Below, in pieces: positions 4,771-52,245 of a stretch of DNA of 64,000 nucleotides (position 1 is its first letter; every line of letters starts with the position of its first letter). The notes under the pieces were generated by a model. That model was not told the DNA's origin and did not search any database. It saw only the letters and a program-made list of their open reading frames with translations. The stretch comes from Alphaproteobacteria bacterium (GTDB lineage Bacteria; Pseudomonadota; Alphaproteobacteria; GCA-2731375): positions 6,464,001-6,528,000 of the forward strand of contig CBDDPY010000002.1 of the NCBI GenBank assembly GCA_965232515.1, read 5' to 3'. Made by a program: the position numbers and the translations under genes.

Positions 4771-4786
4771 CGGACGAAAACCGGAC
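4771..4786 (-). promoter_or_regulatory. Direct-repeat box GTCCG-N6-GTCCG upstream of the STAS-sctN operon
   Basis: Minus strand GTCCGGTTTTCGTCCG; TTCAAT 22 nt downstream. Confidence 0.7.
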
Positions 4787-4824
4787 CATTCGAGCGATGG
4801 CCTGCTGTGCGCCGCAACGTCAAT

Positions 4825-4840
4825 GTCCGCCGAATGTCCG
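4825..4840 (+). promoter_or_regulatory. Direct-repeat box upstream of the sctW operon
   Basis: GTCCGCCGAATGTCCG about 100 nt before the sctW ATG. Confidence 0.7.
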
Positions 4841-4941
4841 GTCACAATATCGGCTTCGACCGAATCTCGTAAGAATTCGGCACGCCATTTCAATGAGATC
4901 CTGACGCGTGGACGGATCGAGTTATCGCAGCGAGACACCAG

Positions 4942-6075
4942 ATGCCGGAAATGCGTACAGACCTTTCAGGTTTGAACGGCCCGAGAGCCCCCCAGGCAAA
5001 GGCCCCCGACATTGGAAAAGGCGGGGGCGTTTTCAGAGGCGCCGAAGTCCAGGTCGTCGATGTGAATTCGCTCATTTCGGATGCGGCGGAGGAATTGACG
5101 TCCGTGCTGAGCGAGGAAACGGAAAAGGACGTTTCAGACAGGGAAGTCGAAGAAGGCAAAAGGTCCGACAGTCTCGAACGCTTCATGCGGACTGGCGAAG
5201 TCAACGAACTCCTGAAATCGCTGGCGGACCTCGACAAAAAGTCCCTGCATCGCGGCATCAAGGCCCTGCTGCAGCGGCAAAGCGTCGATCCCCGTGAACT
5301 TCGGGAAGAAGCCCGAGACCAGTTCAGGGAGCCGGCCCACCAGTATGCGGCGCTCAGGGGCCTCCTCGATGTTCTGAAAGGTCGCGGCGCCGCCAAGGAG
5401 CAGGTCGACGCCGCCGAAGCCGCGCTCGACAGCCTGGTCGAGGAACACGGCTCTGCGATCCGCGCCGCGATAAATATCGGCCCGGCGTCAAAAGAATTCG
5501 TGCTGACGGGCCTGGGCGATGCCCAGTCCCTGCGCGACGCCTACCGATCCAACATACGTGACTACAAGAACATGAGCGCGGTCCTTGACGACCTTACCCA
5601 GCGGTTCGGCGAAGGCGATCTCGAAAAATCGATCAGGTTCATGACCAAGGCACTTTCGGCCGACCTGGAAGCCGACGGATCGTCGATCGACGAAGCGAAA
5701 CTCAACGTCATCCTTAAGGACATGCATCGGCTGAAGACCCTGACCACCGTTCTTGGAAACTGCGACATCCTGGCCGCCAGGGCTCAGGCGAATGGCGCAT
5801 CCCAGGCATTTACATCGGCAAAGGTCCTGCGCGAGATCGTGCCGTTGCAGGATGCCATCAGGGTCGTCCCGGATCACATCGCGGCGATCCCGGAGAGAGC
5901 CGGCCTCAACGATGTGAGCAAACAGATCAACTTTCTAAGTGATTTCAAGGAGATGGCCCGTCTGATCCCGCTGGAGAGCTTCGTCCGCGCGGAAAACCGG
6001 GAAAAGCTGATGGAAGCGATTCAGGACGCGCTGGACGAAAAAATTGCTCGCGAGGAAGAGGAAGAAGTCGCATGA
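4942..6075 (+). CDS. sctW: T3SS gatekeeper SctW (YopN with fused TyeA domain)
   Basis: ISDAAEELT...SE, AIRAAINI, LRDAYR, ALSADL HrpJ-domain motifs; TyeA-like C-terminus (RLIPLESF...REKLMEAIQDALDEKIAREEE). Confidence 0.9.
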   Translation: MPEMRTDLSGLNGPRAPQAKAPDIGKGGGVFRGAEVQVVDVNSLISDAAEELTSVLSEETEKDVSDREVEEGKRSDSLERFMRTGEVNELLKSLADLDKKSLHRGIKALLQRQSVDPRELREEARDQFREPAHQYAALRGLLDVLKGRGAAKEQVDAAEAALDSLVEEHGSAIRAAINIGPASKEFVLTGLGDAQSLRDAYRSNIRDYKNMSAVLDDLTQRFGEGDLEKSIRFMTKALSADLEADGSSIDEAKLNVILKDMHRLKTLTTVLGNCDILAARAQANGASQAFTSAKVLREIVPLQDAIRVVPDHIAAIPERAGLNDVSKQINFLSDFKEMARLIPLESFVRAENREKLMEAIQDALDEKIAREEEEEVA

Positions 6076-6443
6076 CGATGATCGGCGCATCCGTATCCGA
6101 CTTCGGCAGCGGCCTCGGTCTGGAGTTGGACGAGCTGGGCCGGGGCGGTCACGTGGCGCTTGCGATCCGCGACGTCGGCCAGGTCCATTTCGAGCACCTC
6201 AACGAACAGCTCCTGGTCTACATGTCGCGTCCGATCGACGTCGCGCTGGATCGCCTTGGCGTATGGAAGGCCGCGTTGAGGGCAGTGCACGTGAGCCAGC
6301 GCGTTCCCGTCCGCGTGCAGTGCTCGCTGCATGGCGATGACCTGGTCTTCCTCGCCCGGTACGAAGAGCACGAAGTCGATCGGCCGGCCCTGGAACGGGC
6401 TCTGGATGTGCTGTCCGACCTGCACCAAAAGGTCAGAACCTAG
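6072..6443 (+). CDS. sycN: SycN-like chaperone of the gatekeeper
   Basis: 123 aa, F..GLGL start, LERALDVL end; ATGA overlap with sctW; Ysc synteny. Confidence 0.75.
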   Translation: MTMIGASVSDFGSGLGLELDELGRGGHVALAIRDVGQVHFEHLNEQLLVYMSRPIDVALDRLGVWKAALRAVHVSQRVPVRVQCSLHGDDLVFLARYEEHEVDRPALERALDVLSDLHQKVRT

Positions 6444-6472
6444 GCAACCGGATCCGTTGGAGGCATGCAGAC

Positions 6473-49983: not shown

Positions 49984-51492
49984 TTAGCCTTGAACCTTGG
50001 CGCTTCTGGCGACTTCCTGCATCTTCGACATCATGGCGTCGATGATGGAGAAGCCCTGCGTGATGTATGTCTGGAAGTTCTGCGTCTCGTGCGAGATGTC
50101 GTTGGTTTCCAGCTGGGTGCTGTCACGCGTCTGGGTCGCAACGTTCTTCATTTCGGTTTGGATATTGTCGACCTGATGGGAGGTGAGGCCCCACTGCTTG
50201 TCTTCAATCTCCTGTTTCTTGTCGGCCTTTTTCTCGTCCGACCAGGTCAGGACGTTGTGGGCAATCTCGCCGTGTTCGCCTTTGTATTCCTTGTGCGTCT
50301 TCGCGTAGTTGCCCATAAAGCCCCAAGTCGTTGAGGCGACTTCGATTTCTTCCGGCACCGGGATGTCGTCCGGATTGGCCATGTAATCGAGATACACCTG
50401 GTCGTCGTCGCTGATTTCATTGGACGCAATGGGGATGTTGTGATCTTCGCACCAGTCCACCAGGTTGACTTCATCGCCATTGTGGTCGGTGAAGGTGATG
50501 TCGTTGAGCTGGGTCTTGGCGTCGGCATCCGAATTTTCATTCTTCGACAACGCCGCCATGGCCTGGACAAGGTCACCGTAGTCTTGCGTGTGCATGTAAT
50601 TTTCCACGCCTTTGGTGCGGATGACATCGCCGGTGACTTTGATGTTGTTCTGCGTCAGCAGGAAGTAGAGCGCCGCAATCGACAGGTTGAGGAGCTTGTC
50701 TTCCAGGCTCTCTTCGTGCGGGGGCGGATTCGCAACGATCTTGCCGTCCTTCATCGGATACTGGGCCGCTTCGTTGAGATAATCCGTCAGCGCCTTTTGC
50801 TCTTCCGTCGTCATGTTCTGGTAATCCGGCATGGCGTAGACCAGTTTTGCCGCCGCATCGCCATAGGCGGTCCTGCCTTTGCAGATGTCCTGAAAATTGT
50901 TCAGCGGCTGATCCGTGCCCATCGTCGCCAGATAGTAGGTCGCCATCTGTTGCGCTTTGGTCGTGTTGCCGTGCACGAGAATGAGCCCGGAGACCGCATC
51001 GCCGTCTTCAAGGTTCATCCGGTAGCTCGAGTTGTGATTGGCCATGAGGCTCATCACGTAGGACTGATCCTGCCTCGGCAGGCGGGTGAAGTTGACCATC
51101 GCATGCTGCAGCGCGTCATTGTTGGCCGGGGCCATGGACGCGGACATGCCCTGAAGAGCGATCAACGTCCCGGCTTCGCCCGCCGAGATTTTCCCTTCCA
51201 TGGCCAAATTCTCGATGTCTTTCGCTGTCATGCTGTTCGCCAGCGCCACCAGATTGTTCATGCGATCCTCGGGCAACTGTTGCCCCGAGGCCCAGGTGTT
51301 CAGGGCAAACTCGACGTTGTCCGCATTGCATGCATTGATGATTGCCTGTTGCTTCGCGGCGTAATCGCTTGTCGACTTGGTCATCACCAATGTTTTGTCT
51401 TCCGACGAAAAGTTGCCGTCGGTGTCATAGATGCTCGCGCCAAAATACCCCGCGGATACTTCGCCGACCTGCTGACTTCCATCACCACTCAT
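49984..51492 (-). CDS. Putative needle-tip protein SctA (LcrV position), ~502 aa
   Basis: Lies between an LcrG-like gene and sycD; C-terminal TQLETNDISHETQNFQTYITQGFSIIDAMMSKMQEV helix reminiscent of tip/EspA-type C-termini; ATG 51492 with GGAG RBS. Confidence 0.6.
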   Translation of the reverse strand: MSGDGSQQVGEVSAGYFGASIYDTDGNFSSEDKTLVMTKSTSDYAAKQQAIINACNADNVEFALNTWASGQQLPEDRMNNLVALANSMTAKDIENLAMEGKISAGEAGTLIALQGMSASMAPANNDALQHAMVNFTRLPRQDQSYVMSLMANHNSSYRMNLEDGDAVSGLILVHGNTTKAQQMATYYLATMGTDQPLNNFQDICKGRTAYGDAAAKLVYAMPDYQNMTTEEQKALTDYLNEAAQYPMKDGKIVANPPPHEESLEDKLLNLSIAALYFLLTQNNIKVTGDVIRTKGVENYMHTQDYGDLVQAMAALSKNENSDADAKTQLNDITFTDHNGDEVNLVDWCEDHNIPIASNEISDDDQVYLDYMANPDDIPVPEEIEVASTTWGFMGNYAKTHKEYKGEHGEIAHNVLTWSDEKKADKKQEIEDKQWGLTSHQVDNIQTEMKNVATQTRDSTQLETNDISHETQNFQTYITQGFSIIDAMMSKMQEVARSAKVQG

Positions 51493-51555
51493 TTTCATCT
51501 CCATCAACTGATTGGGTGTCTGTTCCATCGGTCCATATGCTGGATACGGACGTTG

Positions 51556-51858
51556 CTAGGCGTTGACGCGGGCGCGCTTGGCTTTCGTGCGCGGTCGCGG
51601 CGCCGGCTTGTTCTCTTCCTCTCGTTTGCGATGGTGGTAGGCCACCACGTCCGACGCGCCGGTGGCATCCGCCAGGGCGAGAACCTCGTCGGCGCTCATG
51701 CCGTGCGCGGCGATCCGCGCCCGCCAGGCGGCGTCGATCTCGTCAAGCTGCTTGAGATTGGTCTCTGCCTGGGCCTTCATTGTCTCGCCGTCCGCGCGCA
51801 GCGCTTCGATTTCGGCTTCGCGCCTCGCTTTACGGGCGGCATGGTCTTCAGACGCCAT
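51556..51858 (-). CDS. LcrG-like small tip chaperone/regulator
   Basis: 100 aa helical, HGMSADEVLAL, basic KPAPRPRTKAKR tail; GAAGGAG RBS; first gene of the translocon operon. Confidence 0.55.
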   Translation of the reverse strand: MASEDHAARKARREAEIEALRADGETMKAQAETNLKQLDEIDAAWRARIAAHGMSADEVLALADATGASDVVAYHHRKREEENKPAPRPRTKAKRARVNA

Positions 51859-51971
51859 GGTCGATCTCCTTCATGATGTGGTCCGGGACCGGCGGCGCGC
51901 CGCTCTGAGCTGCGTTAGCCGATCGCCCTCTGGTTTCGCCAGCAGATGTATTCGCCGCCGTTTCGTCTTGT

Positions 51972-51987
51972 CTGACGAAAACCGGAC
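51972..51987 (-). promoter_or_regulatory. Direct-repeat box of the translocon operon
   Basis: Minus strand GTCCGGTTTTCGTCAG (15/16 identical to the sctN-operon box), TACATCT 21 nt downstream. Confidence 0.75.
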
Positions 51988-52229
51988 AAATGACCGATAC
52001 GGTGACCGGTGCGCCGCCTGCGCGATCGAATCCCCTCCGCCGCGCCGAAGTGGCTTTGGCCGTGCGGGCGGGACACCGACCAGGCCATCGCGAGCATCAG
52101 TAAGACGTGTGCATGCCCAAGCGCGTTCGCCGCAATGACGTGGGCACGGAAGGCGCGACGACGTTAGCGTCCAAGGGGATGCTGCCGGACCCGCCGCAGG
52201 TCGCCGCGCGGTCTGGTTTCGCGCCACTT

Positions 52230-52245
52230 CGGACGGAGTTCGGAC
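52230..52245 (-). promoter_or_regulatory. Additional upstream direct-repeat box
   Basis: Minus strand GTCCGAACTCCGTCCG. Confidence 0.5.

Follow-up and report, generated by a model that had tools for sequence, protein, structure and literature searches.

A spacing-specific GTCCG-N6-GTCCG repeat at the promoters of an alphaproteobacterial type III secretion island, and a candidate winged-helix-STAND activator as its probable reader

The window, as the whole stretch of 64,000 nucleotides analysed here is called (C2:6464001-6528000 of a 7.39-Mb alphaproteobacterial assembly with a genome GC of 65.5%), carries a T3SS (type III secretion system) island of ~63 kb, which runs from window position 1 to ~52300 and extends ~10.5 kb further leftward (locus L013); for domain counts its bounds were set at C2:6453200 to 6516300. 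A complete injectisome is detected by Pfam (SctC, D, J, N, P, Q, R, S, T, U and V), together with a YopN/TyeA fusion, SycN, YscX, a YscY-like TPR protein and an SseC/YopB-like translocator. Accessory genes of the YscX, SycN and TyeA type are specific to the Ysc family, and the corresponding domains (YscX, SycN, TyeA fused to the HrpJ/YopN domain, and the YscD domains) all score above their Pfam cut-offs; judged by these markers, the island machine is a Ysc-family injectisome, Ysc/Bsc-like in kind. The island also holds genes for CesT-family chaperones, eight of them clear and one weak (21.5 bits against a 22-bit cut-off), most of which adjoin large genes without a Pfam or NCBIfam match. Here we describe a direct repeat of 11-bp period, GTCCG-N6-GTCCG (the box), which stands in unusually clean form before nearly every operon of the island and is almost certainly the promoter operator of an island-wide regulon. 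The most plausible reader of the box is a winged-helix activator of 773 residues that is encoded in the island itself.

The island differs from its surroundings in base composition, with a GC of 58-66% per 2-kb bin (mostly 60-64%) and a third-position GC of ~0.70-0.83 in its open reading frames (ORFs), against 0.87-0.92 in most of the flanking genes past ~53 kb. Because island GC, at 60-63%, lies below genome GC and the architecture of the activator was found in none of 32 other genomes of the order, the island appears to have been acquired horizontally.

The preliminary description of this DNA had reported the repeat at 13 sites in the looser form GTCMR-N6-GTCMR, and these sites are borne out. 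Ten match exactly (4771-, 4825+, 11649+, 14535+, 19493-, 19561+, 36822-, 39734-, 44680+ and 51972-), whilst three are one base off in one half-site: 34776- (ATCAG...GTCCG), 34865+ (GTCAC...GTCCG) and 37417- (GTCCG...GTCAC). The word occurs 17 times in the window compared with 3.31 +/- 1.77 in shuffled sequences, and none of 100 shuffles reaches 17. Additional exact matches lie at 52230-, at 29637+, where the repeat points against the flanking genes, and inside long ORFs, where four matches with GC-rich spacers (1109+, 33586+, 35497- and 46922+) come to about the number expected by chance. The operons that carry a box comprise four for the machine or translocator, seven with a chaperone gene at their start or within them and two for transporters, and six of the seven chaperone operons have a neighbouring large gene without a family match. 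The boxes are as follows.

9.7 kb left of the window: box before the operon that begins with a chaperone gene and runs from sctD to sctJ; gap to the start codon 91 nt
4771..4786, minus strand: box GTCCGGTTTTCGTCCG, before the leftward operon STAS, sctN, P, Q, R and, left of the window, S, T, U; 79 nt to a GTG
4825..4840, plus strand: box GTCCGCCGAATGTCCG, before the operon sctW (YopN/TyeA), sycN, yscX, yscY, sctV, PP2C phosphatase; 101 nt to an ATG
11649..11664, plus strand: box before a CesT-type gene (11751) and a gene for a 674-aa putative effector without family match; TAGAAAT ends at +28; gap 116 nt
14535..14550, plus strand: box before a CesT-type gene (14631) and a 743-aa gene without family match; TATAGAT ends at +27; gap 80 nt
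19493..19508, minus strand: box before a leftward CesT-type gene and a 333-aa gene; TAGGCT ends at +29; gap 79 nt
19561..19576, plus strand: box GTCCAAGCATCGTCCA, before an 1876-aa gene without family match and then a CesT-type gene (25341); no clear -10-like word; gap 86 nt
34776..34791, minus strand: box ATCAGGATTTCGTCCG, before a CesT-type gene (34195-34677) and a 646-aa gene; orthologous boxes at L016 12586 and 10274; gap 98 nt
34865..34880, plus strand: box GTCACTGTTCGGTCCG, before a 430-aa MFS-like gene; TAGCCT ends at +28; gap 96 nt
36822..36837, minus strand: box GTCCGAACTTCGTCAA, with the -10-like word TACATT and no downstream ORF of at least 80 aa; orthologous box at L016 8649
37417..37432, minus strand: box GTCCGAATCTCGTCAC, before a CesT-type gene (36884 to about 37300); orthologous box at L016 8040; gap 107 nt
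39734..39749, minus strand: box before the genes of a MarC-family membrane protein and an MFS transporter; TATGGAT ends at +28 here and at L016 7095; gap 83 nt
44680..44706, plus strand: triple GTCCG of 11-bp period (44680, 44691, 44702), before a CesT-type gene (44776) and a 413-aa gene; the triple is kept at L016 2065-2102; gap 75 nt
51972..51987, minus strand: box before an operon of 100-aa, 514-aa, 541-aa (SseC/YopB-like translocator) and 328-aa genes; TACATCT ends at +28; gap 113 nt
52230..52245, minus strand: box of 24.6 bits at the island right edge; the 51972 box stands 242 nt further downstream; neither a -10-like word nor a separate ORF goes with it

Over 15 sites the consensus reads GTCCGa..tt.GTCCG, with CG at half-site positions 4-5 in most of them. 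The box was said to lie upstream of first genes in the direction of transcription, and it does so in all seven intergenic regions that are flanked by genes on the same strand; in divergent regions two boxes stand back to back, each closer to its own gene. From box end to likely start codon the distance is 75-116 nt at 12 window sites. The -10-like words that had been reported downstream were read by eye at 15 sites, 14 in the window and the one 9.7 kb to its left, and most sites do have one: at eight a TA-initial word starts 20-23 nt past the box and ends at +27 to +29 (TACATCT twice, TAGAAAT, TATAGAT, TAGGCT, TAGCCT, TACATT and TATGGAT), four carry weaker words that end in the same range, and three have none (19561+, 44691+ and 52230-). 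When seven sites of a second island, L016, are added to these 15, the last T of an AnnnT pattern falls at +27/+28 in 12 cases compared with about one per other position. No TTGACA-like bases are found where a -35 hexamer would sit, and no third degenerate repeat was seen by eye between box and -10-like word in the site alignment, except at the triple box.

Several sites have features of their own. Within 39734-39770(-), another GTCCG lies 15 nt past the second half-site, directly before TATGGAT. A block of ~40 nt, ~75 nt downstream of the box at 36822(-), is conserved in L016 (window 36646-36837(-), L016:8649-8800(+)) and may represent a small RNA or a very short ORF. The box at 52230(-) may be an auxiliary site or a remnant. 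The box-like sequence GTCCGAGAAAAGTCCA at 29637-29652(+) lies in a 449-nt gap between two minus-strand genes, points against both and has no -10-like word after it.

The repeat is specific to the island in position and spacing. The strict word GTCCG-N6-GTCCG occurs 46 times in the genome and nine of these are in the 64-kb window, which makes up 0.87% of the genome. When the spacing k in GTCCG-Nk-GTCCG is varied from 0 to 24, the window holds nine matches at k=6, three at k=15 and none or one at the other spacings. Genome-wide, the count at k=6 (46) falls within the range of the other spacings (28-82), so there is no excess of the box outside the island. When 15 island sites were combined into a 19-nt weight matrix, the genome yielded 13 matches at 20 bits or more, of which 12 lie in or beside the island and the thirteenth sits beneath a 1.9-kb open frame of high third-position GC on the opposite strand. 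One match of this strength comes from outside the training set: the site that precedes, by 91 nt, the chaperone gene followed by sctD, 9.7 kb leftward of the window. Background frequency and random orientation, which would have spoken against a regulon, were not seen. The expectation that a genome-wide scan would yield more effectors failed, as it turned up no convincing extra effector promoters. At 16 bits or more, 23 matrix matches (22 places) lie outside the window, mostly in long frames of high third-position GC, and none precedes a chaperone or effector-like gene. The intergenic exceptions are found at a BTAD-TPR regulator gene, at fliQ, at a sensor gene (where the gap is too short) and between two winged-helix genes.

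Two of these exceptions deserve description. At C2:5782371-5782397(+) (L125:2371-2397), a GTCCG double box with a third repeat, GTGAA, lies 142 nt before the gene of a 658-aa BTAD-TPR (SARP-like) regulator, and TACTTA begins 19 nt past the box; the site could link this regulator to the island or be the regulator's own operator. At C2:6779028-6779043(+) (L126:3028-3043), the GTCAG-type sequence GTCAGAAATCCGTCAG lies antisense in a 132-nt gap between tandem winged-helix-TPR genes. Other winged-helix proteins of the genome may use similar repeats.

A second island was available on a metagenome contig, L016, with 16.9 kb of readable sequence. It encodes the closest relative of the activator (P0002, 75-77% identical) and keeps the gene order of the window: effector and chaperone, divergent secretin and activator, MarC, and chaperone-effector pairs. 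The shorter core GTCM-N7-GTCM occurs ten times in L016 compared with 3.16 +/- 1.77 in shuffled sequences, and none of 200 shuffles reaches ten. By the matrix, box-bearing promoters are found at seven places, all directed towards the downstream gene, one of them a triple box and five orthologous in position to boxes of the window. When these five pairs are compared ungapped from the box, 46/50 half-site positions are identical, followed by 37/55 in the -10 zone (+20 to +30) and 18/30 in the spacer; the values are 64/150 for the 30 nt upstream, 43/95 for +1 to +19 and 61/150 for +31 to +60. Flanks other than the -10 zone are thus 41-45% identical, and in this alignment the half-sites and, to a lesser degree, the -10 zone bear the mark of selection. 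L016 also contains a truncated second copy (10274-11300(+)), beside 12586-14996(+), of a chaperone-effector pair whose orthologue in the window is 32391-34677, with an identical box GTCAGGATTTCGTCAG before each copy.

The candidate activator is encoded next to the secretin gene.

39927..42248, minus strand: gene of the candidate activator P0001, 773 aa; PhoB-like winged helix at ~1-100, degenerate cyclase-fold domain at ~130-300, then a STAND/AAA_16 ATPase and a helical C-terminal part
42298..44440, minus strand: secretin gene sctC, on the strand of the activator gene and ending 49 nt before it; its start near 44440 was read from a lipoprotein-like signal peptide

In six-frame domain searches of the whole genome, only one of 30 Trans_reg_C matches falls inside the island, and it is the 773-aa protein (PF00486 at residues 26-96, 59.2 bits against a cut-off of 26.2). 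By sequence, the closest solved DNA-binding domains are those of PhoB (E 1.1e-11), then CadC and ToxR. The proposal of an OmpR/SARP-type activator is supported as to the winged helix of the island's sole Trans_reg_C protein; it does not extend to a response regulator of the TtsI or OmpR type, as the protein has no Response_reg match and no receiver domain. None of the 31 AraC-type (HTH_18) matches of the genome lies inside the island, in agreement with the earlier suggestion that AraC-type control is missing there, and none of its 22 Sigma70_r2 matches does either. The nearest AraC gene stands next to an efflux operon ~6.4 kb past the left end of the island, and among NCBIfam models it fits an RclR-like one best.

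The ATPase part matches AAA_16 at residues 314-502, where it scores 83 bits (cut-off 32.6), and in 12 orthologues G344, G347, G349, K350, D475 and D476 of Walker A and B are invariant. An AlphaFold model computed from the 12-sequence alignment has a mean pLDDT of 78. With its ATPase part, Foldseek retrieves CED-4, Apaf-1, Cdc6/Orc1, MalT (8bob) and a STAND-TPR protein (6mfv) at E 1e-8 to 1e-6, and as modelled the fold is of STAND type, a NOD followed by helical and winged-helix arm domains. Residues ~130-300 resemble the class III cyclases Cya2 and CyaB (TM 0.63-0.68, normalised to target) and match the profiles of CyaB and Cya2 weakly, at 4e-4 to 1e-3, with no PF00211 match at E 0.001 or better; as Pfam finds no cyclase there and the sequence differs between orthologues, the domain is probably non-catalytic.

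A search of 5.8 billion clusters returned 11 relatives of the same architecture, 35-75% identical over the full length, and those with names come from Acuticoccus (e.g. Acuticoccus sp. MNP-M23), Minwuiales, Hyphomicrobiales and unclassified Pseudomonadota. All 12 sequences share the recognition-helix and wing residues V60, D62, G63, L65-C68, S70, R71, R73, T88, H90 and G93-F96, and this recognition helix is unlike those of 22 other aligned winged-helix domains of the genome, PhoB included. Two samples of 400 genomes of the class contained no protein of the same architecture; the matches there start at residue 95 or later, bar one full-length match in genome G585, a 1213-aa protein with neither T3SS genes nor boxes within 20 kb on either side. 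Among 298 plasmid records only paralogues were found, covering residues 124-761 at most, and the search for related loci in genome contigs gave only two distant partial matches. In metagenome contigs, one of 79 loci, L016, has T3SS genes, the others being cyclase-AAA-TPR paralogues without T3SS neighbours. The order of secretin and activator genes and the 49-nt gap between them are identical in L016.

A related island in another genome, G333 (SctW 40% identical), has no orthologue of the activator, and the 80 kb around its sctW contain three loose box matches with no preference for spacing 6. Boxes are thus present in both islands that bear the activator and absent from the related island that does not, although the numbers are small. 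Four tandem AraC-family (HTH_18) genes lie ~42 kb from this sctW (G333:C1:2034503-2038062) and are possible regulators of the boxless system.

From these observations the island's winged-helix-STAND protein probably reads the box. Two winged-helix domains of the activator would bind the half-sites head-to-tail, an arrangement that the geometry of the tandem repeats would fit. If the T at +28 is taken as -7, the half-sites would fall at about -50 to -46 and -39 to -35, abutting or overlapping the -35 region, and the bound activator would recruit the housekeeping RNA polymerase; both the start of transcription and the mode of activation are thereby predicted from sequence. As a STAND switch, the ATPase, cyclase-fold and helical domains would keep the DNA-binding domain inactive until a signal and ATP permit oligomerisation. 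Since no box points into the secretin-activator operon, that operon may supply the basal level of activator. Four poly-A RNA runs under the same species label have 0 reads over window 33500-52500 and are uninformative either way.

Taken together, it is fairly likely that GTCCG-N6-GTCCG is the operator of a self-contained regulon that was brought in with the ~63-kb island and is read by the 773-aa activator. The more specific proposal, to which we give slightly better than even credence, is that a STAND ATPase with a PhoB-like winged helix and a degenerate cyclase-fold sensor acts as master activator of a mobile Ysc/Bsc-like island, senses its cue directly, oligomerises on 11-bp-phased GTCCG repeats and switches on ~13 operons. 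A number of points weigh against this account. Matrix scores at the training sites are circular, which the strict-word counts are not. Three high-scoring boxes misfit a simple promoter model: 52230- has neither a -10-like word nor a gene, 36822- is not followed by an ORF, and no clear -10-like word stands after the triple box. The predicted position of -50 to -35, derived wholly from the -10-like words, is about one turn upstream of that of PhoB, SARP and tts boxes. L016 is the only independent related island that was read and, as its sites are orthologous, the pairs demonstrate conservation and not independent origin; the control provided by G333 is a single genome. Furthermore, 29 of the 30 Trans_reg_C matches lie outside the island and their proteins could in principle read such repeats, and GTCMR-type repeats occur beside other winged-helix or SARP-like genes at C2:6779028 and C2:5782371.

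These last two points favour an alternative in which the boxes are read by a winged-helix protein of the host chromosome, either an OmpR-family response regulator or a winged-helix-TPR protein, whilst the STAND protein does something else. We regard this as unlikely: the island appears foreign to the order, each of the two copies seen encodes a winged-helix protein of its own, L016 has the boxes together with the STAND protein, and the recognition helix differs from those of the 22 other aligned domains. Because there is no spacing-6 excess outside the window, there is also no sign of a host regulon that uses the strict word.

In another reading the boxes would be Pho boxes, and PhoB would turn the island on at phosphate scarcity. 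Like the island box, the Pho box is a direct repeat with a GTC core and an 11-bp period, and it substitutes for the -35 element; PhoB is also the closest solved relative of the island protein's DNA-binding domain, and a full PhoB is encoded in the genome next to pstCA. The host pstS promoter, however, carries CTGTCATTAAACTGCAAC, an A/T-rich site of TGTCA type that is unlike the island box, whose half-site positions 4-5 are mostly CG, and no site of the pstS region is among the best 70 of 292 matrix matches of 12 bits or more, so that this idea is very improbable. That the repeat has no regulatory role, as a chance word or the remnant of a repeated or mobile sequence, is hardly credible despite the four of 17 loose matches in long ORFs that look like chance and the two or three boxes without an obvious gene, given that no shuffle reaches the observed count, that enrichment is limited to one spacing, that orientation and distance to genes are consistent and that conservation of only the 5-nt half-sites against divergent L016 flanks misfits a mobile repeat. 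A promoter for an extracytoplasmic function (ECF) or other sigma factor was rejected, the half-sites being just 6 nt apart and the island having no sigma gene.

Regulation of T3SS genes through a shared box is known, with the tts box, the PIP box, the hrp boxes and the ExsA sites as examples, and such boxes have been the most productive route to effectors. ExsA and LcrF are AraC activators encoded in or beside their locus that switch on all T3SS operons via a site overlapping the -35 region; the island, in contrast, contains no HTH_18 domain. HilA binds a direct repeat (the HilA box), and TtsI is of the response-regulator type, with an N-terminal receiver domain and a C-terminal winged helix. 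The regulon described here is therefore of a known kind, and what is new is the register of the box and a class of regulator that was not found in the literature searched.

The consensus of the rhizobial tts box (tcGTCAGcttntcGaaAGct / tcGTCAGcttntcGaaAGctnngccncnta) has GTCAG at positions 3-7 and GaaAG at 14-18, according to the accessible portion of the source (PMC3009519). As far as that text goes, the island box shares with it a GTCAG-like half-site core, a second half-site 11 bp on and the marking of both machine and effector operons, but differs in that the island half-site is mostly GTCCG (C, not A, at position 4) and in that a TA follows 20-23 nt past the second half-site where the tts consensus has it at 10 nt, roughly a helical turn less (PMC3009519). 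The description of the element as tts-box-like consequently holds for core and period and fails for the register to the -10-like word. The candidate reader is a winged-helix protein as TtsI is, but has a STAND ATPase fusion in place of the receiver domain, and the rhizobial machine is of Rhc type whereas the island machine has the Ysc-family markers YscX, SycN and TyeA. In the excerpted text of another study the rhizobial secretin gene rhcC1 is without a tts box, which parallels the boxless secretin operon of the island (PMC3973906).

In terms of protein design, the nearest analogue is AfsR, a large SARP of Streptomyces composed of SARP, NOD and TPR parts, which is described, in the portion of the source at hand, as binding two 11-bp direct repeats that overlap a poor -35 element (PMC10936776). 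Judged from the same portion, in both proteins a winged helix of OmpR type at the N-terminus is joined to a STAND/NOD ATPase and a helical sensor. The island protein differs in having no BTAD (PF03704) at E 0.001 or better and a cyclase-fold domain after the winged helix instead. The afs box, as given there, spans -40 to -19 with its 3' repeat 8 bp from the -10 element, whereas the island box would span -50 to -35 at a distance of 20-23 nt (PMC10936776). AfsR belongs to Actinobacteria and antibiotic genes, the island protein to a T3SS island.

Like HilA of Salmonella SPI-1 and EilA, the candidate is an island-encoded putative T3SS master activator in which a winged helix of OmpR/ToxR type at the N-terminus precedes a large C-terminal domain. 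Of the named models, HilA/EilA of NCBIfam (NF009037) scores best on residues 3-100 (E 1.4e-12), although its 46.8 bits stay below the cut-off of 589. This likeness is confined to the first ~100 residues; HilA has no ATPase and serves an Inv/Mxi/Spa-type machine. PhoB has the closest solved DNA-binding domain and, with its Pho box, an 11-bp-period direct repeat as well, but the island protein has no receiver domain and the predicted register to the -10 element differs.

Among the papers listed from the literature searched, with subscription journals outside its coverage, none describes a STAND- or AAA-type T3SS activator, and those listed for the box motif itself were primer matches only. The probable reader of the box is neither an AraC protein nor a response regulator nor a sigma factor, and if the proposal is true it would represent a class of T3SS master regulator without a description in that literature. 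It would also define a portable regulon whose whole effector set can be read by the box, with at least eight chaperone-linked genes without family match, among them that of the 1876-aa protein. Confirmation would add this regulator class to T3SS biology, provide a handle on the signal that induces an injectisome in an environmental alphaproteobacterium and flag the proteins without family match as candidate effectors.

Further features of the island are listed here.

19663-25293(+), 12305-14329(+), 15151-17382(+), 26063-28126(-), 32391-34331(-) and 45274-46515(+): candidate effector genes, chaperone-linked, 413 to 1876 aa, without a Pfam or significant NCBIfam match
4332..4688, minus strand: STAS-domain anti-sigma-antagonist-like gene, first in the sctN operon
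9314..11584, plus strand: SpoIIE/PP2C phosphatase gene with DUF3369, last in the sctV operon
C2:6453798-6454163 (L013:9798-10163), minus strand: RsbW-like HATPase_c_2 kinase gene; no box points into it
34977-36269(+): MFS-like transporter gene
37520-39731(-): MarC and MFS transporter genes
L013:16146-17759(+): amino-acid permease gene

A coding frame without a family match ends before sctJ in a stretch that was at first taken as intergenic, and we read it as an SctI-like gene. The MFS-like gene and the MarC and MFS pair have boxes of their own, transporters being an unusual cargo for a T3SS regulon.

The partner-switching trio (STAS, SpoIIE/PP2C and RsbW-like kinase) is complete in the island, with no sigma-factor gene beside it. 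A comparable set is known from Bordetella, where, in the part of the source available, the Ysc-family bsc/btr machine is accompanied by the PP2C phosphatase BtrU, the STAS protein BtrV, the kinase BtrW and an MFS transporter, and transcription proceeds via the ECF sigma factor BtrS and its secreted antagonist BtrA (PMC7498569). To the extent of that account, the island resembles the Bordetella locus in its PP2C, STAS, RsbW-like kinase and MFS genes and differs from it in having no sigma-70-family gene and a winged-helix-STAND protein instead.

Two small contigs of the 65.5%-GC assembly, C3 (5516 bp, 46% GC) and C4 (10862 bp, 42% GC), may be contaminants or foreign elements.

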